From Christensenellaceae bacterium (lineage in GTDB: Bacteria; Bacillota; Clostridia; Christensenellales; UBA1242): 64,000 bases of DNA. Below are positions 2,568 through 56,139 of this stretch, piece by piece; the first letter of the stretch is position 1, and every line of letters starts with the position of its first letter. Under the pieces are notes generated by a model. It saw nothing but the letters and a program-made list of their open reading frames with translations. It was not told where the DNA came from and did no database searches. The position numbers and the translations under genes are program-made. The stretch covers positions 436,065 through 500,064 of the forward strand of contig JAISKJ010000003.1 of assembly GCA_031260975.1 (NCBI GenBank). The letters are read 5' to 3'.

Positions 2568-3059
2568 ATGATAGTTTTAGGGATAGACCCGGGTTTGGCG
2601 ACAGTGGGCTATGGGGTTGTTGACAAACGGCCCGACGGCAGTATTATGGCCGTAGATTATGGGGTTATTGAGACTCCGCCAAACGAAACCATTGCCACAC
2701 GACTTGCTATGATTTATGAAGGAGTAAAGCAGCTTATGCTTCACTTTAAGCCCGAAGAAATCGCACTTGAACAAATTTTTTATTTCAAAAACCAAAAGAC
2801 AATAATCCCTGTAGCCGAAGCCCGTGGAGTTGCGATATTGGCACTTGTGCAGACTACCGGCAAGCTGTTTGAATACACTCCACTTCAGGTCAAGTCTGTA
2901 ATGACAGGAAACGGCAGGGCGGACAAAAAACAGGTGCAGAATATGGTTAAACTTTTGCTTAATCTTGACAACATTCCAAAGCCTGATGATGCGGCAGATG
3001 CATTGGCGGTGGCAATTACACACTGCAAAACAAACAATATCAGCAAAAATCAAATATAA
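2568..3059 (+). CDS. ruvC: crossover junction endodeoxyribonuclease RuvC
   Basis: MIVLGIDPGLATVGYG N-terminus and DAADALAVAITH C-terminal motif; ATG 2559 lies inside the -10 box so 2568 preferred. Confidence 0.9.
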   Translation: MIVLGIDPGLATVGYGVVDKRPDGSIMAVDYGVIETPPNETIATRLAMIYEGVKQLMLHFKPEEIALEQIFYFKNQKTIIPVAEARGVAILALVQTTGKLFEYTPLQVKSVMTGNGRADKKQVQNMVKLLLNLDNIPKPDDAADALAVAITHCKTNNISKNQI

Positions 3060-3079
3060 GTCAGAAAAGGAGAGAAGAG

Positions 3080-3691
3080 ATGTATTCATTCATAAGAGGA
3101 GTTGTGGCAGATAAAAGTGAAAACAGCTTTGTGTTGGATAACGGAGGTATAGGCTATGAAATTCATGCCTCAAAAGCAGGTATAGACCGCGTAGATGTAG
3201 GGGATGAAATTACTGTTCATATCCACGAGCAGGTGACCGAATCAGGGATAAATCTGGTTGGGTTTATTGATATGAAAGAAAAAGAACTCTTTAATAAGCT
3301 GATTGGCATAAACGGTGTGGGCGTTAAGGCCATACTTACTATGTTTTCAAATGTTGATATTGACACAATAAACAGTATTATTGCAAAGGGTGACGCAAAG
3401 GAACTCAGCAAAATTAAGGGTGTGGGCCCCAAGACTGCCGAACGTATTGTTTTGGAGCTTAAGGGCAAGGTTACAGCTTCTGCTACTCCTGAACAAAAAA
3501 CAGCTGTCAAAAAAGACAACATTATCGGCGGCGACGGCCGAGAGATTGGCACGGACGTAATTGATGAAGTTGTGTCACTTCTAGAAGGCTTAGGAGTTGC
3601 CAAGGGTGAGGCACTCAGGCTTGCTAAACAGCAATATGAATTTGGGCTGACCGCCACTGATGTATTAGTCAGATGTCTAAGACACGTATAA
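3080..3691 (+). CDS. ruvA: Holliday junction DNA helicase RuvA
   Basis: 203 aa; HhH motifs (INGVGVKAIL, IKGVGPKTAERI); between ruvC and ruvB. Confidence 0.92.
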   Translation: MYSFIRGVVADKSENSFVLDNGGIGYEIHASKAGIDRVDVGDEITVHIHEQVTESGINLVGFIDMKEKELFNKLIGINGVGVKAILTMFSNVDIDTINSIIAKGDAKELSKIKGVGPKTAERIVLELKGKVTASATPEQKTAVKKDNIIGGDGREIGTDVIDEVVSLLEGLGVAKGEALRLAKQQYEFGLTATDVLVRCLRHV

Positions 3692-16916: not shown

Positions 16917-18188
16917 ATGAAAACAAAAACAAAGGTATATAACAGTGGCCTTAGGCTTATTGTGAGTACTACCGACACCAAAGCGGTAAGCATGTTTATC
17001 GGTGTTGACACGGGTAGCGTAAATGAAGATAAAACCAACAACGGAATTTCACACTTTATTGAGCATATGGTATTTAAGGGCACAAAGAACAGAACCTCAG
17101 AACAAATAAACCGAGACTTTGAAAGTCTGGGCGCCGTTACAAATGCATTTACTTCGCCTTATGTTACGGCTTTTCACAGTCAGTGTATTGACGAAAATGC
17201 TGATAAGTGCTTTGAAATTTTGAGCGACCTTATTTTAAATCCTACCTTTGACGAGACCGAATTTAAGAAAGAGCGCAAGGTTATTTTTGAAGAAATTGAC
17301 ATGTATGAGGATGACCCGGGCTCAGTAGCCTACGACAACTTTATCTGTAAGTTTTTTGAAGGCACAAAAATGGGCAAACTGCTTATCGGCACAAAAAAGA
17401 TACTTAACAAACTCACACCGCAGCATCTGAGAGACTATATGGCAAAGTTTTATGTTCCGCCTAATATTGTGGTGTCGGTTGCTGGGGGTGTAGACTTTGA
17501 AACGGCTGAAAAGTTTGTGAATAAACATTTTGCCTGCCGTTTTAAAACTAAAGGGCATCCGCATGTTTATAATCAGGACAAAAAGGTGTTTATGGCACCG
17601 AAATCAATATTTTTGGGGCTGAAAAAAGATATTAATCAAACAAATATTATATTTGGGCTGCCCATTTGCGGAGTATTTAGCGATGACCGTCTGGCTTATG
17701 GTGTGGCGAGCTTTATTTTTGGCGGCAGTATGAGCTCACGTTTAAGTGAGCGCATCAGAAATAAGCTGGCATTTGTTTATTCTATTCACGCACTACCGGA
17801 TTTTTATGATATAGGCGGTGTTTTGAATGTCAGTTTTGCCACCAACAAAGAGCATCAGGAAGAGGCTATTTTAGCTATCAAACAGGAAATGGACGATCTT
17901 ATGAACAATGGTGTGAGTGACGAAGAATTTAACCGCGCCAAAACATTTTATAAAAGCACGATAATTTTGTCGGAAGAAAATTCAATAAATATCGCAAGGC
18001 ATAATCTTACAAATGTTTTGACATTTAATGAATATAAGAGCATAGAAGACAGAATTGCCGGTATCAACAGAGTGACAAAAGAACAAGTTAACCGAATTTT
18101 TAAATGTATGTTTCAAACCAAAAACGTTTGCGGCGTTGTTGTAAGCAGTGAGCCGAATACCAAAATTTTTGCCCCGCTTGTTGACTAA
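16917..18188 (+). CDS. M16 family zinc peptidase (pitrilysin-like)
   Basis: 423 aa; HxxEH zinc motif HFIEHMVFKG. Confidence 0.87.
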   Translation: MKTKTKVYNSGLRLIVSTTDTKAVSMFIGVDTGSVNEDKTNNGISHFIEHMVFKGTKNRTSEQINRDFESLGAVTNAFTSPYVTAFHSQCIDENADKCFEILSDLILNPTFDETEFKKERKVIFEEIDMYEDDPGSVAYDNFICKFFEGTKMGKLLIGTKKILNKLTPQHLRDYMAKFYVPPNIVVSVAGGVDFETAEKFVNKHFACRFKTKGHPHVYNQDKKVFMAPKSIFLGLKKDINQTNIIFGLPICGVFSDDRLAYGVASFIFGGSMSSRLSERIRNKLAFVYSIHALPDFYDIGGVLNVSFATNKEHQEEAILAIKQEMDDLMNNGVSDEEFNRAKTFYKSTIILSEENSINIARHNLTNVLTFNEYKSIEDRIAGINRVTKEQVNRIFKCMFQTKNVCGVVVSSEPNTKIFAPLVD

Positions 18189-18277
18189 GCTGCGGTTTTA
18201 TGATATAATAAATTATATTCGCAAAAACTTTAACAGGCAGTCGTTTTTGTGCAAATTTAACACAGCAGGAGGTATTT

Positions 18278-18544
18278 GTGGCAGAAGAAACAACTCAAAT
18301 TGAACCATTTAGTGAGGGTGCCTCAAGTGTGGTTTTGTATGGAGAGGCGCCGCCAAGTTTATTGGATGAAACAGGTCATATTCCGTCAAAAATGGAGGAC
18401 GAAAGCAGTTTTGATGGGACGAGCAGTTATGAAATAGATATTTTGTTTGGCACTGATTTAGGCGGCCTTAAGCACGACATGGATATCAGGGGCAGGGCGG
18501 GTGAAATTAATGAAGATATAAGTGATATAAGAGATTTATATTAA
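18278..18544 (+). CDS. hypothetical small acidic protein
   Basis: 88 aa, GTG start with AGGAGG SD, terminator immediately downstream; no family recognised. Confidence 0.55.
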   Translation: MAEETTQIEPFSEGASSVVLYGEAPPSLLDETGHIPSKMEDESSFDGTSSYEIDILFGTDLGGLKHDMDIRGRAGEINEDISDIRDLY

Positions 18545-18569
18545 AATTCCCTTTGCGGGGATTTTTTTT
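18545..18569 (+). terminator. intrinsic terminator
   Basis: AATTCCC-TTTGC-GGGGATT stem plus T8. Confidence 0.8.
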
Positions 18570-18698
18570 ATGTCGCTCTTTATTGTCTTTTAAGACTAAA
18601 AAAATATTGGGCACTTTGACAATTTTTTGATTGTATTTAATAGGCTAAATATGCTATAATTAAAGGGTAGTGAGAAATATTTAAAGGGGTGCTTTAAC

Positions 18699-37544: not shown

Positions 37545-37573
37545 TTGACATTTTTGGCAGGGAATATTATAAT
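37545..37573 (+). promoter_or_regulatory. consensus sigma-A promoter of serS (TTGACA-17-TATAAT)
   Basis: -35 at 37545-50, -10 at 37568-73. Confidence 0.75.
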
Positions 37574-37578
37574 ATAAA

Positions 37579-37596
37579 TTGCATAATGCTGTGCAA
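37579..37596. repeat. palindromic repeat copy, 2 mismatches (TTGCATAATGCTGTGCAA)
   Basis: Starts about 6 nt after the serS -10 box, at the predicted transcript 5' end. Confidence 0.8.
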
Positions 37597-37611
37597 ACTT
37601 TTGGAGGAAAA

Positions 37612-38901
37612 ATGATAGACATAGAGCTTATAAGAAACAATCCTGAAATGGTCAAAAAAAATATAAAAAAGAAGTTTCAGGACAAAAAACTGCCGCTTGT
37701 TGATGAGGTGAAAACTCTCGACATAAGAAGCCGCAGTCTTAAGCAGGAAATTGACAGTCTCAGAAGCAGCCGCAACAAGTTGAGCCAAGAAATTGGCGAG
37801 TTTATGAAGCAAAAGAAAAGCAGTCAGGCTGAAACGCTGAAAAAACAGGTTGTGGATATAAACACTAAGGTTGCTGAGCTTGAGACGGAATATAATGAGG
37901 TAGGCACAAAAATCAACCAAATTATGATGACAATTCCAAATATCATAGCTGATGATGTGCCGGTTGGCCGCAGCGACGCCGAAAATGTTGAGCGTGAAGT
38001 GTTTGGCAAGCCAAAGAAGCCGGATTTTGAAATTCCATATCATGCCGATATTATGGAGAATTTGTGTGGGCTTGACAAAGATAGTGCCGGAAAAACCTCA
38101 GGTAATGGATTTTATTTTTTGATGGGTGATGTGGCAAGGCTTCATTCAGCCATTTTGTCGTATGCCCGTGATTTTATGATAGACAAGGGTTTTAATTATT
38201 GTATTCCTCCGTTTTTGATACACGCAGACGTGGTCAGAGGCGTTATGAGCTTTGCTGAAATGGACGCTATGATGTATAAAATTGAAGGCGAGGACCTTTA
38301 TATGATAGGCACCAGCGAGCACTCAATGATAGGAAAATATAAAGATGCCGTTTTAAAGGAAGAAGATCTTCCGATTTGTCTTACGTCATATTCGCCGTGC
38401 TTCCGTAAAGAAGTTGGTGCACACGGCATTGAGGAACGCGGCATATACAGAGTTCATCAGTTTGAAAAGCAGGAAATGATAGTAATTTGCAAAAAAGAAG
38501 AAGCTAGAATGTGGTATGATAAAATGTCGCATTTTGCGGTTGATTTTTTTAAAAGTCTTGAACTGCCGGTGCGTATTTTAGAATCATGTAGCGGGGATTT
38601 GGCCGATTTAAAGGTTAAGGGTTGCGATATTGAGGGATTTAGTCTGAGGCAGCAAAAGTATTTGGAGCTTGGAAGCTGTTCGGATATGGGAGACGCTCAG
38701 GCACGAAGGCTGGGTATGCGATATAAGACGGCAAGTGGTACAGTTTTTGCGAACACTTTAAACAACACCGTTGTGGCTACACCCAGGGTGTTGACTGTGT
38801 TTTTTGAAAATCATCTGCAAAAAGATGGTTCGGTAAATATACCAAAAGCTCTTCAGCCTTATATGGGAGGCAAAACTAAGCTGGAACCAAAAAAGAAATG
38901 A
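37612..38901 (+). CDS. serS: seryl-tRNA synthetase
   Basis: MIDIELIRNNPE start with GGAGG SD; coiled-coil N-domain, class II motifs. Confidence 0.96.
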   Translation: MIDIELIRNNPEMVKKNIKKKFQDKKLPLVDEVKTLDIRSRSLKQEIDSLRSSRNKLSQEIGEFMKQKKSSQAETLKKQVVDINTKVAELETEYNEVGTKINQIMMTIPNIIADDVPVGRSDAENVEREVFGKPKKPDFEIPYHADIMENLCGLDKDSAGKTSGNGFYFLMGDVARLHSAILSYARDFMIDKGFNYCIPPFLIHADVVRGVMSFAEMDAMMYKIEGEDLYMIGTSEHSMIGKYKDAVLKEEDLPICLTSYSPCFRKEVGAHGIEERGIYRVHQFEKQEMIVICKKEEARMWYDKMSHFAVDFFKSLELPVRILESCSGDLADLKVKGCDIEGFSLRQQKYLELGSCSDMGDAQARRLGMRYKTASGTVFANTLNNTVVATPRVLTVFFENHLQKDGSVNIPKALQPYMGGKTKLEPKKK

Positions 38902-42913: not shown

Positions 42914-42982
42914 CATTTTCTTGTCATATCGGTATTTACATAATAAAACGCGTGTGATATAATATCATAAAATGGGGTGCCT

Positions 42983-43972
42983 ATGAAAGTTAATTTAGAG
43001 GTAAAGAACCTTACCAAAACATTTGGATCCAGGACTGCCGTGAATAATGTCTCCTTTGAGGTTTTTGAAGGAGAGATTTTCGGTTTTCTTGGCCCGAATG
43101 GCGCCGGAAAAACTACCGTTCTTCGCATGGTTTGCGGCCTTGCCGCTCCCACCTCGGGCGATGCTATAATTTGCGGACACTCCATCAAAAAAGAATTTGA
43201 AAAAGCCATCATAAATGTTGGCGGAATTATTGAAAACCCTGAAATGTATAAAAATTTTTCAGGACTTGAAAATTTAAAGTATTATGCCAGCCTATATAAA
43301 GACATTGACAAAGACCGTATAAATCAGGTTGTTGAGCTTGTGGGTCTTAAAGACAGAATGAAAGATAAAATAAAGACCTACTCTCTCGGAATGAAGCAGC
43401 GCATAGGCATTGCTCAGGCGCTTTTGCACAGGCCTAAACTGTTGATACTTGACGAGCCCACCAATGGTCTTGACCCCAGCGGTGTTATTGATATGCGAAA
43501 ATTCCTCACCAAGCTTGCCAAAGCCGAAGGCATATCAATCCTTATCTCAAGCCACGGTCTTGCTGAAATGGAGCTTATTTGCGACACAATCGGCATCATC
43601 GACCGGGGCGTGTTGGTTAGCATCCGCAGCGTTGCCGACATGACCAAAGGGGGTGCTCCGAGAATTCAGATAACGGTTAACTTCCCCAACTACGCAGGAA
43701 AGCTGCTGTTTGAAAAATATGAAACGCTTGACAGCATAACTCTTGAAGATAATACCCTGACAGTTGGGCTTCCTATTGAAGAAGTGCCCGAGATAACAAA
43801 CTATCTGGTAAAAAAAGGACTGCGGATTTATTCAATTACTTCAACGGTAAAGACCTTGGAAGAGGCTTTTTTAGAAACCATTGAAAATGAGCGGCTTTCT
43901 TTTGGAAATCAGGACAGACTTACCTATCAGACAACCACAACTACAACGACCACAACGGGAACGACAAGATAG
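42983..43972 (+). CDS. ABC transporter ATP-binding protein (C-terminal poly-Thr tail)
   Basis: Walker A GPNGAGKTT, signature YSLGMKQR, Walker B LLILDEPT; ends TYQTTTTTTTTTGTTR. Confidence 0.92.
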   Translation: MKVNLEVKNLTKTFGSRTAVNNVSFEVFEGEIFGFLGPNGAGKTTVLRMVCGLAAPTSGDAIICGHSIKKEFEKAIINVGGIIENPEMYKNFSGLENLKYYASLYKDIDKDRINQVVELVGLKDRMKDKIKTYSLGMKQRIGIAQALLHRPKLLILDEPTNGLDPSGVIDMRKFLTKLAKAEGISILISSHGLAEMELICDTIGIIDRGVLVSIRSVADMTKGGAPRIQITVNFPNYAGKLLFEKYETLDSITLEDNTLTVGLPIEEVPEITNYLVKKGLRIYSITSTVKTLEEAFLETIENERLSFGNQDRLTYQTTTTTTTTTGTTR

Positions 43973-44046
43973 AAAACAAAAAACTGAACAATTCTGCAGT
44001 AAATACTTAATGGGACATTACTGCCACAATAAATAAGGAGAAAAGT

Positions 44047-45831
44047 ATGTTTAAATTATTTAGAGGAGAGCTTCGAAAAATAATATTGCGGCCCGGCATA
44101 TATATTATGACAGCTCTTTTGGTGCTGGTGCTGATACTTGCTCCTATGATTTTTAAGCCCTCTGCGCGAACAGATGCGCTTCCTGTAATTGACGGCACAA
44201 CAGTGTCGGCTCACAACAGTTATTTTAGCGTAAACATAAAACCAGAGCGCGACCAAAGTCTGACGGACAGGGTTATTATTGCCGAAGATATTTTGAGCAA
44301 CCCCGCCCGAAATGTGGTCTATGACAACATTCTGTCATATTTTGTACGCCCTGTTGTTGACACTATAAACCCTGTTACGCTAAAAGATTTTTACGGCAAG
44401 TTTGAAGGAATTATGGGCACCTTGCCTTTGGATATCACTTCGGTGAGAACTGAGCTTGAAAGTGCGGTTTTGGGCATGAAAAACAGTGCTAACACGCTTT
44501 CAAACAAATATTCCGAAACTGTCACCAGCATAACTCCCCTCGTTTTGGTGTCAAAGGAAACCAACGAGCAAATAAGAAGTGTGCTTGAAGGGCTTATTCA
44601 AAGACTTAATGTTTTTAGTGCTGGTGTGCAGGACCGTATAGACTATATCAACCTGCGGGCAAACCTTATTGACTTTGGGTATATCCGTGACCTTGACACA
44701 CACTTTGTAAACGTAAAAAATATAGAATACGATAACCAGATGCTGCAGCAGATTTATGAGGACTATTATGTCGGCGTGCCTGCTCATTTGACTGATTTAA
44801 ACAATGAAATATTGGCACTTGCTCTAGGTGTTCCTAGTGACCCAGCGGCTCAGGCTCAGGGTAAAATAGATATAGACGAAAAAATTTGGGCTTATGCTGC
44901 CCTTTCAAAAAACACAACCAGAATTTTGGATAATGCTATTATGCTGAGTGCCGCCGCAGGCAAAAGTGACGCTGAAATGAGCGGATATATCGGCTTTGAA
45001 AACTTTAATAATTATCAACGAACAGAAGAACTGACCAAATACAAATTTCTTTTTGACAACGATAAGGCCGAATATGACTATGCAAATGTGTTTGCGTTTG
45101 GCAGGAACAGTGATTTTTATACCAACGCATATGACTTTATATATTTTGTGCTTGAAATTTTTGCTTTTGTAATAATTGCTTATGGTGTGGTGCTTGGTGC
45201 CGGAATGATTGCAGGTGAGCAAAGCAGCGGTACAATCAAACTGCTTGCCATAAGGCCATATAATCGCGGCAAAATAATGTGCTCCAAAATGATGGCTGCT
45301 TTCTTCTTTGTGACATTGTTTACTGTGCTGTCAACCATCATAGCTATTATAGCCTCACTGTTTATATACGGAACAGGCGCGCTGGCTTCACTTCCGGTGC
45401 TTGTAATATTCAATGCAACTCTGCCCTTTACGCTAAACGCCTGGGTGCTGCTGCTTATATATCTTGCTGCTTTGATTATAAAGGCGTGGATATTTGTGCT
45501 GCTGGCTTTTGCGATTTCTACGTTGTTTAAGTCTCATGTGGGTGCCGTAATTATCTCAGTTCTTCTATATTTGATAAGTATGGTAATAACCTTTGTGGCG
45601 GCGGGTGCAAATTGGCTTAAGTATGTGATATTCAGCAACCTTGACTTCTTTAAGTATTTCGGAGGCTCGTTTATAAATCAGTATCGGTCGGGCGAAACCT
45701 TTACTAACCTGTTTATAAATCCCGTGTTTGCCGACACTACCATAATCTATACTTCAGTTGTTGTCGTAGGCTTGCTGCTGCTTCTAAATATTATAACCTT
45801 TGCAACATTTAAGCACAGGGATATAACATAA
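44047..45831 (+). CDS. ABC-2 type permease with about 330-aa extracytoplasmic domain
   Basis: 594 aa; one N-terminal TM, large soluble region, five or more C-terminal TM helices; follows the ATPase. Confidence 0.7.
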   Translation: MFKLFRGELRKIILRPGIYIMTALLVLVLILAPMIFKPSARTDALPVIDGTTVSAHNSYFSVNIKPERDQSLTDRVIIAEDILSNPARNVVYDNILSYFVRPVVDTINPVTLKDFYGKFEGIMGTLPLDITSVRTELESAVLGMKNSANTLSNKYSETVTSITPLVLVSKETNEQIRSVLEGLIQRLNVFSAGVQDRIDYINLRANLIDFGYIRDLDTHFVNVKNIEYDNQMLQQIYEDYYVGVPAHLTDLNNEILALALGVPSDPAAQAQGKIDIDEKIWAYAALSKNTTRILDNAIMLSAAAGKSDAEMSGYIGFENFNNYQRTEELTKYKFLFDNDKAEYDYANVFAFGRNSDFYTNAYDFIYFVLEIFAFVIIAYGVVLGAGMIAGEQSSGTIKLLAIRPYNRGKIMCSKMMAAFFFVTLFTVLSTIIAIIASLFIYGTGALASLPVLVIFNATLPFTLNAWVLLLIYLAALIIKAWIFVLLAFAISTLFKSHVGAVIISVLLYLISMVITFVAAGANWLKYVIFSNLDFFKYFGGSFINQYRSGETFTNLFINPVFADTTIIYTSVVVVGLLLLLNIITFATFKHRDIT

Positions 45832-45834
45832 TGA

Positions 45835-45980
45835 TTGACAAAAACAAAACCTTTGAGGTATAATAAAATCATGAAAATAGAATTCTATACACTACTATCA
45901 TAAATGGGCATGTCACAAGGCATGCGCTTTTTGGTGGTGCTATAGGTTAACCGACAGCACATACTGTCGGATTTTTTTAT
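45835..45980 (+). promoter_or_regulatory. leuS leader: promoter TTGACA-18-TATAAT, 10-codon mini-ORF (45871-45903, MKIEFYTLLS), GGTGGTGC box, intrinsic terminator 45951-45978
   Basis: All elements read directly; terminator CCGACAG-CACATA-CTGTCGG plus T7. Confidence 0.6.
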
Positions 45981-46056
45981 AAATACTAGTTTTTATAAAA
46001 ATATCACAAGCAGATTAAGGCTAACGTCCGCGGGTGTACACACAAGGAGAGAAAAT

Positions 46057-48426
46057 ATGAGAGAATATAAATATCGTGAAATTGAACAAAAATGGCAAAA
46101 GATTTGGGAGAAAGACAACGCCTTTAAGGCCGTTGATGAGGATTGCCGTTCCAAACAATATTTGCTGTTTGAATTTCCTTACCCTAGCGGTGCCGGTATG
46201 CACGTAGGTCACGTGCGGGCTTATTCTGCCGTTGAAGCACTTGCCCGCAAGCGCAGACTTCAGGGCTACAATGTTTTGTGCCCCGTTGGCTATGACGCGT
46301 TTGGTTTACCTGCCGAAAATTACGCCATAAAAACCGGTAAGCACCCGGGCGAACTGACTAAGGCCACTATCGCCAATTTTTCCGCTCAAATTAAGCGTTT
46401 GGGTTTTGGTGTGGATTGGTCACGCCAAATTGCCACATGTGAGCCAGAATTTTATAAATGGACACAGTGGATATTTTTGCAGATGTTTAAACGCGGACTT
46501 GCCTATAGGGCTGTCAGCAAAGTAAACTTTTGTGAGAAATGCAAATGTGTGCTTGCCAATGAGGATTGTGAAGGCGGCAAATGTGACCGCTGCCATACCA
46601 AGGTTGTTCAAAAAGAGCGTATGGTGTGGTTTTTGAAGATACGCGACTATGCCGAAAGGCTGCTGGAAGGCTTAGACCGAACAGAATTTTTGGAATCTGT
46701 CAAGCAGGGTCAGCGTCATTGGATTGGCAAAAGCGAGGGCCTTGAGATTGACTTTTTAACCACAAACGGAGAAAAAATTACAGTATACACCACTCGTGCC
46801 GACACGGTTTTTGGTATAACTTTTTTGGTTATTGCCCCTGAACACAAGCTTTTGAAGAGTAAAGACATTAGAAATGCGACGCAAGTTTCAAAATATGTTG
46901 AACAAAGCAAGTTTAAAAAGGAATTTGACCGCAAGCTTAACAAACAAAAAACAGGCGTAAAGCTTGACGGAATAAATGCGGTTAATCCTTTTACCGGCAA
47001 AGAGATTCCCATTTTTGTAGCGGATTATGTTTTGGGCGGTCACGGAACGGGTGCCATTATTGCCGTTCCTGCTCATGATCAGCGCGACTATGAGTTTGCA
47101 AAAAAGTATAAACTTAACATCTTGCAGATTATTGAGGGAGATATCACTCAAAAGGCTTATGAGGGTGATGGTAAGCATATAAATTCAGATTTTATCAACG
47201 GCATGAATATAGCCGACGCCACTAAGTCCGTGAGTGATTATTGTATTAAAAACAAAATAGGCCGCACGCATGTGGACTATGCCATCACTGATTGGGCCTT
47301 TAACCGACAGCGTTATTGGGGCGAGCCTATACCCATTGTTTATTGCAAAAAATGCGGAACTGTGCCCGTGCCCGAAAGTGAGCTGCCATTAACACTTCCT
47401 TTTGTAGACGATTATAAGCCTGATGAAGAAGGCAACAGTCCGCTGTCACGAGCACAAGACTTTGTAAATTGTAAGTGTCCCAAATGTAATGGACCTGCTC
47501 AGCGTGAAACTGACACTATGCCGCAGTGGGCGGGGTCAAGTGCTTATTGGCTGAGATTTATGGACCCGCACAACAATAAAGAGTTTGTAAGTAAAGACAA
47601 AATGAAGTATTGGAATCAGGTTGACCTGTATTCCGGTGGTCAGGAGCATGTAACAAGACATTTGATTTACGCCAGATTTTGGCACAAGTTTTTGTTTGAC
47701 CTCGGCGTTGTTGATTTTGATGAGCCTTTTAAGAGACGTGTGCAGCAGGGGCTGATATTATCTTCCAATGGCTCAAAAATGAGCAAGTCTGCAGGTAATG
47801 TCGTGGGGCCCATTGAGTATACCGACAGACACGGTGCCGATGTGTTTAGAGTGCACCTTTACTTTTTGGGAGACTTCTCTGCCGCGGCTCCATGGAATGA
47901 TGACGCATTGTTTGGCTGTGAAAGATTTATTAGAAGAGTTTGGAACCTGCCCGATATTGTAAAAGGTGACGAAATAAGTGAAAAGCATATATACAAAATA
48001 AATCAGCTTATAAAAAAAGTTGATGATGACAGCGAAAATCTTAAGTTTAACGGAGCTATTGCATCACTTATGGAATTTTTGAATGTGGTGACAAACGACG
48101 GATATATCACCAAAGATGAATTGTATATCTTTTTGCAGCTGCTCTACCCGTTCGCTCCGCACACAACTGAGGAACTGAGTGAAATTATAGGCAAGCCGCC
48201 GATATATAAGTCCGTTTGGCCAAAGGCAGATGAAAAATATTTGCTTGACAAAACCTTTAATATGCCTGTGCAAATAAACGGCAAGCTTAAGGGTGTGGTT
48301 GTGGTAAATCAGGACGACAGCCAAGAGCAAGTCTTGGAAAAAATCAAAGCTACCACTAATATTGATGTTAGTGCAGCCAAAAAGATTGTGTTTGTAAAGA
48401 ATAAAATAATAAGCATCATAAAATAA
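46057..48426 (+). CDS. leuS: leucyl-tRNA synthetase
   Basis: 789 aa; HIGH-type GMHVGHV, KMSKS, editing CP1 domain. Confidence 0.97.
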   Translation: MREYKYREIEQKWQKIWEKDNAFKAVDEDCRSKQYLLFEFPYPSGAGMHVGHVRAYSAVEALARKRRLQGYNVLCPVGYDAFGLPAENYAIKTGKHPGELTKATIANFSAQIKRLGFGVDWSRQIATCEPEFYKWTQWIFLQMFKRGLAYRAVSKVNFCEKCKCVLANEDCEGGKCDRCHTKVVQKERMVWFLKIRDYAERLLEGLDRTEFLESVKQGQRHWIGKSEGLEIDFLTTNGEKITVYTTRADTVFGITFLVIAPEHKLLKSKDIRNATQVSKYVEQSKFKKEFDRKLNKQKTGVKLDGINAVNPFTGKEIPIFVADYVLGGHGTGAIIAVPAHDQRDYEFAKKYKLNILQIIEGDITQKAYEGDGKHINSDFINGMNIADATKSVSDYCIKNKIGRTHVDYAITDWAFNRQRYWGEPIPIVYCKKCGTVPVPESELPLTLPFVDDYKPDEEGNSPLSRAQDFVNCKCPKCNGPAQRETDTMPQWAGSSAYWLRFMDPHNNKEFVSKDKMKYWNQVDLYSGGQEHVTRHLIYARFWHKFLFDLGVVDFDEPFKRRVQQGLILSSNGSKMSKSAGNVVGPIEYTDRHGADVFRVHLYFLGDFSAAAPWNDDALFGCERFIRRVWNLPDIVKGDEISEKHIYKINQLIKKVDDDSENLKFNGAIASLMEFLNVVTNDGYITKDELYIFLQLLYPFAPHTTEELSEIIGKPPIYKSVWPKADEKYLLDKTFNMPVQINGKLKGVVVVNQDDSQEQVLEKIKATTNIDVSAAKKIVFVKNKIISIIK

Positions 48427-48449
48427 AAAAGAGATTAAATCTCTTTTTT
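48425..48449. terminator. bidirectional terminator between leuS and rnhA
   Basis: AAAAAAGAGAT-TAA-ATCTCTTTTTT symmetrical hairpin. Confidence 0.8.
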
Positions 48450-48453
48450 GTTT

Positions 48454-48912
48454 TTATGTCAGTTTTGTCAAATCGCTTTTAAATTTCTCACTTTCTTTTA
48501 CGGCGATTTTATCGCACTTGTTGTTATACTCATTGTCAGCGTGGCCCTTAACTTTCACAAATCTTACAGTGTGTTTCCTTGTTAAATTTAAAAGTTCTTC
48601 CCACAAATCCTGATTGAGCACGGGCTTTTTGTTTGCGCTTCTCCATCCGTTTAAAACCCAGCCGGATATCCAATCTTGCAAAAACGCATTGCACACATAA
48701 GCTGAGTCTGTATATAATTTTACCGCACAAGGTTCTTTCAGCGCGCTCAACCCTTCAATGGCTCCCTTTAGCTCCATGCGGTTGTTGGTGGTGGCACGCT
48801 CCCCTCCTGACAAAACCTTTTCTTTTTTTCCATATAACAAAATTGCACACCAGCCACCGGGGCCGGGGTTTCCGCTACACGCTCCGTCTGTATAAATTTC
48901 TACTTGCTTCAT
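48454..48912 (-). CDS. rnhA: ribonuclease HI
   Basis: 152 aa; IYTDGACSGNPGPGGW, NNRMEL, HADNEYNNKCD motifs. Confidence 0.93.
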   Translation of the reverse strand: MKQVEIYTDGACSGNPGPGGWCAILLYGKKEKVLSGGERATTNNRMELKGAIEGLSALKEPCAVKLYTDSAYVCNAFLQDWISGWVLNGWRSANKKPVLNQDLWEELLNLTRKHTVRFVKVKGHADNEYNNKCDKIAVKESEKFKSDLTKLT

Positions 48913-49104
48913 GTTCTAATTATAATCCAATAAGACAAGCATTGTCAATCAAACTTGTTTGTAAAGTCATGCATTTTGAAAGTTGGGCAGAATCAGGAAA
49001 AATATAATTATAATCATGAAGCTTATTTTTTGTCATTTGAGCTGTCAACACAATCAACTTGCAAATTTCATAAACTACTTTAATTAAAATGAGGAGAAAA
49101 AATT

Positions 49105-49935
49105 ATGAAATTTTGTGACAGTCACAGTGATTGCCTGACTTTTTATAGCATTGAAAATGCCGCTCAATATCTTAAAAGTTATAAAACAAAAAACATAAAA
49201 ACACTTTGCTGTGCCGTGTTTACAAGTGAGCTGAAAGAAGACCCGCTTTTATATATTGAAGCCGCGGCAGCCCAAATAAAGGCGTTAAATTCAGGACATA
49301 AATTTATTATTTACGGTGAAGACTGCAGTTTTTTGACAAAAAGCAACCTAAAAACTTTGATAGATTTGCGTCCTGTTTCATGCGGGCTCACATGGCATTT
49401 TGACAATAGTCTTGCCGGAGGCGACGAGGGACACGGAGATATCACTCCGTTTGGAACTGAAGTCATAAAAACTCTGGAGCAAAATAACATTTTTATAGAT
49501 ACTGCTCATCTCAACCGTAAATCTTTTTATCAGGTTTGCGGGCTTTCAAAAAAACCTATTTACAACTCTCACTGCGGCGTATATAAGTTTTGCCGCAACA
49601 AACGGAACTTGACCGACCAACAGATTAAATATATTTTTGATACAAACGGTTTTATGGGTATTTATCTTGTTTCATATTTGTTGAGCAAAAAGCATTGTTC
49701 CGTTAGGACTGTTGCTGAGCATTTTGATTATGTAATAAGAAAATTCGGATATAAAAATGTAGGCTTAGGCACGGATTTTTTTGGCACAAAAAACCTGCCC
49801 GCACGTGCGACGGGCTATGATGATTTGCATTTGATTTTAAAAGAACTGAAAGACATGGGACATTCGCGCAAAATAATAAAACATATTGCTCATAAAAACT
49901 ATACTGATTTTTTAAAACGCAGCGGATTATTGTGA
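49105..49935 (+). CDS. membrane dipeptidase (M19 family)-like protein
   Basis: 276 aa; CDSHSDCL, DTAHLN, GLGTDFFG motifs resembling the renal dipeptidase family. Confidence 0.7.
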   Translation: MKFCDSHSDCLTFYSIENAAQYLKSYKTKNIKTLCCAVFTSELKEDPLLYIEAAAAQIKALNSGHKFIIYGEDCSFLTKSNLKTLIDLRPVSCGLTWHFDNSLAGGDEGHGDITPFGTEVIKTLEQNNIFIDTAHLNRKSFYQVCGLSKKPIYNSHCGVYKFCRNKRNLTDQQIKYIFDTNGFMGIYLVSYLLSKKHCSVRTVAEHFDYVIRKFGYKNVGLGTDFFGTKNLPARATGYDDLHLILKELKDMGHSRKIIKHIAHKNYTDFLKRSGLL

Positions 49936-50751
49936 GCTATCTTTATATTTATATAGGATGGCGGGTCTGAACCCTCCGGTTTTATATATGCCCAATGACT
50001 GAGCCTTGTTTTTTATCTTTCGCTGAAAATTGGCCTTACTGAGTTTTTTGTCTAGTATAGCTTCATACACTTGTTTTAGTTCAGCCATAGTAAATTGTTT
50101 TTCCAGCATACTGAAAGCAATATCAGTATATTCCAGCTTATTTCTTATTCTGTTGAGGCCATAGAAGATTACTTTGGCGTGGTCAAATGCAAGATTCTTG
50201 GCTTCTGTCATAATTATGCTGCCGTTGTCTGTTTTTATTTTTGCTTTGATAACTACTCCGTTTTCACCCTCAAGCGTCATTTCACACACGCCGTCAGAAG
50301 CTGTCGGTGAGGTTTTTAATGTAAACCATGAAGTTTTATTGCTGTCATCATTGAGACTTGTTCTTTTTTTGTTTATCAGCCCCACATAAGAAATTGACAA
50401 TACTCTGGTTCGGGGGTCTCTGTCAACATCTCCAAAGGTGTAAAGTTGCTCAAGATACATATCCTTTATTTTAGTTTTGTTTTTCAGGCATCTGATTGAA
50501 GCGTCTTCAAGTGCTTCATTCAGCCTGACAAATGTGCCGGGTAAACTCCATAGGTCAATATATGGGTGCTCATCTCTTTTGACAAGCAAAACCTGAAGTT
50601 TTTTTTCACCGAGTTTTCGGATATTATTATTTTCCGTTTCATCAATAGCAAACAATAAATTGTCAACCGCCACCGACGGTCTTTCAAAATCGGTTATTTT
50701 ATATTGTTTTAAAAACTCTGCTTCGGTTAATCCGTTTTTATCTTTTTTCAT
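49927..50751 (-). CDS. nrtR: NrtR-like Nudix-related transcriptional regulator
   Basis: 274 aa; N-terminal Nudix fold plus C-terminal wHTH (FTMAELKQVYEAIL...ANFQRKI); adjacent to nadE-nadV-prs. Confidence 0.75.
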   Translation of the reverse strand: MKKDKNGLTEAEFLKQYKITDFERPSVAVDNLLFAIDETENNNIRKLGEKKLQVLLVKRDEHPYIDLWSLPGTFVRLNEALEDASIRCLKNKTKIKDMYLEQLYTFGDVDRDPRTRVLSISYVGLINKKRTSLNDDSNKTSWFTLKTSPTASDGVCEMTLEGENGVVIKAKIKTDNGSIIMTEAKNLAFDHAKVIFYGLNRIRNKLEYTDIAFSMLEKQFTMAELKQVYEAILDKKLSKANFQRKIKNKAQSLGIYKTGGFRPAILYKYKDSSQ

Positions 50752-56065: not shown

Positions 56066-56139
56066 TGGCAGGGAGTGTAGGACTTGAACCCACCTCATAG
56101 GTTTTGGAGACCTAGGCACAACCTCTATACCAACTCCCT
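56066..56139 (-). tRNA. trnW: tRNA-Trp (anticodon CCA)
   Basis: 74 nt; acceptor AGGGAGT/ACTCCCT, anticodon stem TAGGT/ACCTA with loop CTCCAAA, T-arm GTGGG-TTCAAGT-CCTAC, encoded CCA end. Confidence 0.9.

Follow-up and report, generated by a model that had tools for sequence, protein, structure and literature searches.

The leuS gene studied here lies in a stretch of 64,000 nucleotides of a Christensenellaceae bacterium, and the whole of this stretch is referred to as the window. Upstream of leuS, the genes for an ABC ATPase and an ABC-2 permease have been identified, with the permease gene ending at position 45831. Between the permease gene and leuS, a sigma-70-type promoter, a mini-ORF of ten codons, a small hairpin and an intrinsic terminator follow each other (Table 1). 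The promoter, the ATG 6 nt behind it, the mini-ORF, the hairpin at 45908-25, the terminator and leuS itself all lie where a preliminary description of this DNA had placed them. The promoter, the ORF and the terminator are solid features of the locus, and the same holds for the larger hairpin described below.

The terminator is the sole one after the upstream ABC operon. The spacer separating it from leuS is poorly conserved and unstructured, and no promoter-like site was identified on the plus strand between the terminator and leuS, either in the window or in the related locus L082. Therefore, leuS depends on read-through of this terminator. Elsewhere in the window, terminators are located right after stop codons and promoters come later; the leuS leader is the only place at which a gene is preceded by a promoter and then a terminator. 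The reversed order speaks for a leader acting in cis rather than for a self-contained cassette. A second spacer in which a promoter is followed by a terminator (18189-18698) was rejected as a leader, since it contains a small gene preceded by a Shine-Dalgarno sequence. This gene is an ORF of about 88 amino acids at 18279-18565 on the plus strand, upstream of an FtsK-like gene, with a promoter at about 18180-18209 and a terminator at 18543-18565.

Table 1. Features of the leuS leader and leaderless genes of the window (SD, Shine-Dalgarno sequence).
Feature	Position	Strand	Description
Sigma-70-type promoter, TTGACA-18 nt-TATAAT	45835-45864	+	12/12 consensus matches; same architecture in L082 2809-2838
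-35 and -10 boxes	TTGACA 45835-40; TATAAT 45859-64	+	spacer 18 nt
Leaderless mini-ORF MKIEFYTLLS*, predicted leader peptide	45871-45903	+	ATG at predicted +1
Segment 1, 5' strand of helix P1, UCUAUACACUACUA	45884-45897	+	within mini-ORF; pairs with 45932-45946 in MFE and centroid folds
Hairpin P2, GCAUGUC-ACAA-GGCAUGC, then GC+UUUUU	45908-45925	+	stem 45908-14/45919-25; at tip of P1/P2 stem
Segment 2, 3' strand of P1, UUU UGGUGGUG C UAUAGG	45929-45946	+	contains GUGCU 45937-41 and GG 45945-46, alternatively usable for antiterminator
Candidate antiterminator, GUGCU 45937-41:AGCAC 45956-60 plus GG 45945-46:CC 45951-52	45937-45960	+	about -8.3 kcal/mol; encloses terminator 5' arm
Intrinsic terminator, CCGACAG-CACAUA-CUGUCGG, then A + U7	45951-45978	+	stem 45951-57/45964-70; U7 45972-78; -11.3 kcal/mol, z = -7.1
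leuS with SD	46044-48426	+	AAGGAG 46044-49; ATG 46057; TIGR00396 leuS_bact, 890 bits, E = 1.3e-267
rnhA, predicted leaderless	48912-48454	-	TTGACA-18-TATAAT, 6-nt gap to ATG, no SD; residues 1-147 match RNase HI profile
ruvC, predicted leaderless	2568-3059	+	ATG 2568, near-consensus -10 upstream, no SD; full-length Pfam match
NrtR-like Nudix/winged-helix regulator, predicted leaderless	50751-49927	-	ATG at 50751, near-consensus -10 upstream, no SD

Promoters matching the consensus at all 12 positions occur four times in the 64-kb window, where about 0.1 would be expected by chance as estimated from the base composition. The ATG of the mini-ORF (45871-73) begins 6 nt past the -10 box, which is the usual distance of +1. 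Because of this distance, its A is the predicted transcription start site, and no Shine-Dalgarno sequence is present. The codons of the mini-ORF are ATG AAA ATA GAA TTC TAT ACA CTA CTA TCA TAA, with the tandem CUA CUA at 45892-97, and in the MFE fold of its RNA the first 13 nt remain single-stranded. No leucine codon is used less often in the window than CUA, which accounts for 5.1% of the leucine codons in 47 long ORFs (90 of 1752). All leucine codons in the leader ORFs of both the window and L082 are CUA. An internal ORF starting at ATG 45910 (MSQGMRFLVVL*) was rejected, because its frame is broken by a 1-nt loop insertion in L082.

A leaderless translation of the mini-ORF is plausible by analogy, since three real genes of the window share its promoter-ATG geometry. 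For rnhA, ruvC and the NrtR-like gene, the gap between the -10 box and the ATG amounts to 6-8 nt, and full-length family matches begin at that ATG. The leaderless arrangement of rnhA is also present in L082, and 10 of the 58 promoter-like sites in the window have an ATG 5-8 nt downstream. Leaderless mRNAs are common in Actinobacteria; judged from these gene starts, they seem to be common in this Clostridia lineage as well. Together with rnhA, ruvC and the NrtR-like gene, the leader ORF suggests that this uncultured group routinely translates leaderless mRNAs.

Some further starts were seen in the same survey. A minus-strand ORF of 170 amino acids (2577-3089) is an antisense shadow cast by ruvC; no family matched it, in contrast to the full-profile RuvC match on the plus strand. 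At 37545-37581 on the plus strand, a TTG lies 5 nt downstream of a 12/12 promoter; it is the first start codon of an ORF of 440 amino acids (37579-38901). This ORF may have a leaderless TTG start, or its true start may lie further downstream. In the region 56231-56066 of the minus strand, the gene for tRNA-Trp (56066-56139) has a perfect TTGACA-17-TATAAT promoter upstream, and here the predicted +1 is also an ATG (56196), which opens a 12-codon ORF, MLGYLRKQNEQC*, ending about 18 nt before the tRNA. This ORF is probably due to chance and is without evident function. Short ORFs at +1 can thus arise without an evident role, which calls for caution in reading a +1 ATG as the start of a leader peptide.

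By folding the predicted transcript, a pairing was identified that was absent from the preliminary description. The 3' half of the mini-ORF (45884-97), which holds CUA CUA, pairs over 14 bp with UGGUGGUG.CUAUAG (45932-46). The resulting helix P1 extends via AAA:UUU into P2, so that an interrupted hairpin of about 27 bp is formed. For the window, this P1/P2 hairpin has a folding energy of -25.7 kcal/mol (z = -5.4), and none of 200 shuffled sequences was as stable. For L082, where P2 is conserved with one extra base pair, the values are -22.8 kcal/mol and z = -5.6. The opposite strand folds poorly (-12.3 kcal/mol and z = -1.2 in the window, -14.5 kcal/mol and z = -2.2 in L082). Because of this, P1/P2 is taken to be a sense-strand RNA structure containing G.U pairs, and a DNA palindrome or a minus-strand RNA was rejected. 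The string TTGGTGGTGC is located at 45931-40, between P2 and the terminator, and GGUGGUG is the G.U-containing complement of CACUACUA, the leucine codons. P1/P2 sequesters the 5' half of a small candidate antiterminator (GUGCU:AGCAC plus GG:CC). In the model presented below, P2 with its GC and U-run looks like a candidate RNA polymerase pause hairpin.

A hairpin of this kind might act without a ribosome as the sensor. The leader would then also cause premature termination in cis, but P1/P2 would be an anti-antiterminator controlled by a trans-acting factor, like LeuRS itself, another RNA-binding protein or an RNA, and the ORF would be incidental. For aminoacyl-tRNA synthetases, autoregulation is exemplified by thrS of E. 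coli. The hairpin and the terminator are the statistically solid parts of the leader, and the ORF is short and statistically weak, with another +1 ATG ORF present at the tRNA-Trp promoter. Autoregulation by attenuation has been described as frequent among RNA-binding proteins (PMC2965389). However, P1/P2 is a nearly continuous helix without the conserved internal loops or bulges that usually make up ligand or protein sites, and the window locus, L082 and a further related locus, L083, showed resemblance neither to tRNA nor to an Rfam family. A trans-acting factor also leaves unexplained why tandem copies of the rarest cognate codon stand in frame exactly in the strand that needs to be masked. 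For these reasons, control by such a factor is considered rather improbable.

The preliminary description had proposed that GUGCU (45937-41) can pair with AGCAC (45956-60) as an antiterminator. The nascent RNA was folded with segment 1 masked, as it would be by a ribosome, and with its end placed directly ahead of the 3' arm of the terminator. In this masked nascent RNA, the antiterminator is the MFE and centroid structure and dominates in both the window and L082, with P = 0.83-0.94 compared to 0.18-0.26 in the unmasked RNA. The proposed pairing was thus recovered as the dominant one, although it is not better than that of shuffled sequences (z = -1.1 in the window and -1.3 in L082, with 29 and 24 of 200 shuffles, respectively, as good). 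The pairing is real, yet taken alone it is statistically indistinguishable from chance.

The antiterminator is also short; its energy is -8.3 kcal/mol, whereas the terminator reaches -11.3 or -14.6 kcal/mol. At equilibrium in the full-length RNA, the terminator forms in every masked state (P = 0.89-0.99), which implies that any antitermination must be purely kinetic. In addition, segment 1 is masked equally well by a stalled ribosome and by one that waits at the stop codon, so that the ON and OFF states would differ by dwell time only. It was considered whether a ribosome at the stop codon melts P2, so that the 3' arm of P2 traps GUGCU and blocks the antiterminator. This was unsupported as stated: the structure with the P2 3' arm paired to GUGCU is the MFE only of the full-length RNA, and the antiterminator is still dominant in the nascent RNA (P = 0.83-0.87).

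With the ORF codons in segment 1, together with P1, the candidate antiterminator and the terminator, the leader has the 1:2, 2:3 and 3:4 layout of a classical attenuator. A short early ORF with cognate codons, a terminator between the ORF and the gene, and regulatory codons overlapping segment 1 of the anti-antiterminator are all present. On balance, we favour a ribosome-mediated, leaderless leucine leader-peptide transcription attenuator, which would tune leuS to the supply of charged tRNA-Leu. An attenuation by leucine codons was among the readings given in the preliminary description, and it has gained from the leucine codons being located on the 5' side of a strong anti-antiterminator hairpin, from the layout kept in L082, from CUA being the rarest leucine codon and from the leaderless genes nearby.

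In the proposed attenuator, transcription would start at A45871, so that the RNA would begin with AUG and a 70S ribosome would directly translate the 10-codon leader. RNA polymerase would probably pause after P2 and the U-run. With an ample supply of the Leu-tRNA(Leu) that reads the rare CUA codon, translation would run to completion and the ribosome would leave, and segment 1 would pair with segment 2 to form P1/P2. The terminator would then form and transcription would end, leaving an RNA of about 108 nt. When the CUA-reading Leu-tRNA is scarce, the ribosome would stall on CUA CUA and cover segment 1. Segment 2, left free, would capture the 5' arm of the terminator through GUGCU:AGCAC and GG:CC while the 3' arm is still to be transcribed, and transcription would read through into leuS.

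Close relatives of this locus are few. In a search for LeuS among 5.8 billion proteins, only two sequences with an identity above 56% were identified, P0002 with 87% (locus L082) and P0003 with 82% (locus L083), and a search with the permease returned the same three genomes. A scan of genome contigs for LeuS gave nothing closer than 52%, the best match in a metagenome scan for LeuS had 55%, and the conserved 3' half of the leader, used as a DNA pattern against metagenomes, gave 0 matches. The leaders of the more distant leuS genes L084 and L085 are unrelated.

The alignment of the leuS leaders, by which the preliminary description was to be checked, gave a divided result: the full device was found in L082, but L083 lacks the promoter, the ORF and P2. 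In L082, a TTGACA-18-TATAAT promoter is followed after 6 nt by the ATG, the ORF, P1/P2, the antiterminator and a terminator of 9 bp. The ORF of L082 is ATG AAA ATA AAA CTA AAC ACA CTA CTA TAA, encoding MKIKLNTLL* with nine codons, three of which are CUA. The antiterminator has the same structure with a U-A pair replaced by U.G. In the lower P1 stem, CUAUA:UAUAG of the window corresponds to CUAAA:UUUAG in L082, so that pairing is kept despite several substitutions and a 2-nt register shift, and the terminators of the two loci differ by a compensatory double change from A-U to G-C. The two leader peptides differ at codons 4-6 and in length, with MKI, TLL and the frame being kept. In both ORFs, ACA CUA CUA is in frame with a stop at most two codons later; other codons have changed non-synonymously, and L082 has a third CUA. 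Such a pattern would be expected for a leader peptide, in which the regulatory codons alone matter. The full element was found in these two genomes only, and since their leaders are about 90% identical, the evidence from conservation and covariation is thin.

L083 is the outgroup of the three, with P0003 being 82% identical to both other LeuS proteins. Here, the stop codon of the permease gene is followed by GCCGUCUUUUUGGUAGUGCU, the terminator, a Shine-Dalgarno sequence and leuS. The terminator is thus kept without the promoter, the ORF and P2, which shows that the device is dispensable. At 2929-2990 of L083, the permease stop codon is immediately followed by GCCGUC, which could form a helix of -12.5 kcal/mol with GACGGC in the 5' arm of the terminator. 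In this genome, leuS lacks its own promoter; it may be coupled to the ABC operon, and a link between termination and translation is conceivable as well.

A covariance model, R1, was built from the two complete leaders and searched on the window and 97 related loci. It matched the window, L082 and, weakly, the remnant in L083; no second copy was found in the window, nor elsewhere in the 97 loci. A screen of 167 leuS loci for a leucine mini-ORF with a terminator likewise identified the window and L082 only, after two other candidates had been rejected: the one in L104 is a T-box, and the one in L160 is the end of the upstream gene.

These searches bear on the possibility that the leader does not regulate leuS at all. 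As the preliminary description had also suggested, the RNA of about 108 nt could be an independent small RNA, here taken to be abundant, or the promoter could be a strong leuS promoter in front of a constitutively leaky terminator that mainly ends the ABC operon, with leuS being expressed by unregulated read-through. Promoter and terminator do form a complete cassette, the permease gene has no other terminator behind it, and in L083 read-through must suffice, because leuS stands right behind the terminator without its own promoter. The promoter-terminator order, however, is reversed compared to the rest of the window, R1 gave no second copy in the window or the 97 loci, and the leucine codons in the strand competing with the antiterminator are left unaccounted for. 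An unregulated cassette is therefore judged unlikely, if still to be reckoned with. The RNA of about 108 nt may have an additional role in trans beside that of a cis leader.

The gene order around the leader differs among Clostridia. In most of those retrieved, leuS is located directly behind its upstream gene without a leader; we take this upstream gene to be rsfS from its conserved C-terminal motif. T-boxes were found in some distant leuS loci (L018, L019, L044 and L104). In L168 (5253-5440) and L170 (5262-5480), which encode a permease with 41% identity, the ABC operon has its own unrelated terminator and is followed by a tRNA-Trp-like gene. Further on, rnhA and a gene for an M19 peptidase are present in these two loci and leuS is absent (compare window 42977-49935).

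From the gene order, leuS and its leader look like an insertion or relocation between the permease gene and rnhA that is specific to the lineage of the window. Within this lineage, the ORF module would have been either gained or lost. The favoured leaderless attenuator appears to have been assembled around a pre-existing terminator after the relocation of leuS, or lost in L083. If true, this would be a snapshot of the de novo birth of an attenuator, and the three related genomes would represent a small natural experiment on the gain and loss of such devices after gene relocation.

T-boxes are the usual regulators of aminoacyl-tRNA synthetase genes in Firmicutes, and the leader was compared to them in detail. 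The preliminary description had pointed out the likeness of GGUGGUGC to the T-box core. As a string, the likeness holds: GGGUGGUGCU in L082 resembles the T-box core GGGUGGUACC, it lies just 5' of the antiterminator helix, and its UGGU would presumably match the discriminator A73 of tRNA-Leu. The likeness has no covariance-model support. RF00230 was searched in the whole window at the gathering score, in 45700-46120 at E<=10 and in L082 and L083 at E<=1, each time without a match. With the same thresholds and regions, nothing credible was identified for any Rfam family, and RF00512 (Leu_leader) and RF01743 (Leu/phe leader) were absent from the cmscan output at E<=10 for 45700-46120.

A minimal T-box-like riboswitch would do without a Stem I: the antiterminator would be stabilised by uncharged tRNA-Leu, with its ACCA end base-paired to UGGU in TTGGTGGTGC. 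This device, which the preliminary description had also suggested, found no support. As that description had noted, there is too little room for a Stem I or specifier domain: the distance from +1 to the box is only about 60 nt, and this stretch forms one continuous hairpin with the box, without a specifier loop, K-turn or distal platform. The candidate antiterminator lacks the 7-nt bulge typical of T-boxes, in which a conserved UGGN binds the 3' end of the tRNA. When the three relatives are aligned, UGGU does not fall at one shared position (UUGGUGGU, UGGGUGGU, UUGGUAGU), and pairing with CACUACUA fully accounts for the string. The leader is not a T-box, and a T-box-like riboswitch reduced to this string is hardly credible. 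A related, very improbable option is that the mini-ORF is incidental and the 65-nt P1/P2 hairpin with its GGUGGUGC strand is a new minimal sensor of tRNA-Leu or LeuRS, which would control the terminator independently of translation. If true, such a sensor would be a drastically reduced functional analogue of the T-box.

Most likely, the leader is an attenuator of a known kind that is unusual in this phylum, and it leaves general principles unchanged. With T-boxes, it shares the location in the 5' leader of an aminoacyl-tRNA synthetase gene, and it would share the terminator/antiterminator output and a tRNA-charging signal. However, T-boxes sense uncharged tRNA directly via Stem I with its specifier and via the T-box bulge, none of which is present here. 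With pheM-pheST of E. coli and the enterobacterial leu leader (RF00512), it would have in common a leader peptide rich in cognate codons that controls an intrinsic terminator, pheST being the case of a synthetase operon. The enterobacterial leu leader relies on rare CUA codons. In contrast to the leader described here, the ORFs of these systems depend on a Shine-Dalgarno sequence and are 14-28 codons long, 4-7 of them regulatory, and the 2:3 antiterminators are robust. The resemblance to the leucine leader families of Rfam is functional only.

In a comparative study from 2005, no aminoacyl-tRNA synthetase gene of Firmicutes was known with classical attenuation (PMC1262725), and since then only predicted histidine leaders of bacilli have been reported (PMC2965389). 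The latter are located before a hisS paralogue or hisZ, where they were predicted to replace T-boxes, and a de novo origin was suggested for them (Naville & Gautheret 2010, PMC2965389). They are similar to the leader described here in being predicted leader-peptide attenuators that stand in for T-boxes before synthetase-type genes of Firmicutes, and differ in the amino acid, the gene and the clade. If true, a leaderless 10-codon leucine attenuator before leuS would extend this Firmicute exception to Christensenellaceae-like Clostridia.

The leuS gene itself has a comparable leader in Streptomyces, where an attenuator was predicted in 2005 by Seliverstov et al. (PMC1262725). By RNA-seq of S. 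lividans TK24, a leaderless leuL2 of 12 amino acids with three leucine residues (MRAVRLLLSEPR) was identified, followed by a hairpin and a U-run before leuS (PMC8079986). Both systems combine the same gene with a hairpin and a U-run, and the predicted leader peptide of the window would, like leuL2, be very short and leaderless and follow the logic of a classical attenuator. However, leuL2 belongs to Actinobacteria and has no sequence similarity to the leader ORF of the window, which encodes 10 amino acids (9 in L082) with two CUA codons (three in L082). Compared to leuL2, the anti-antiterminator in the window is unusually long, with 27 bp, and the antiterminator is much weaker. If the leucine attenuator proposed here is real, it would have arisen by convergence with the leuL2-leuS system of Streptomyces.
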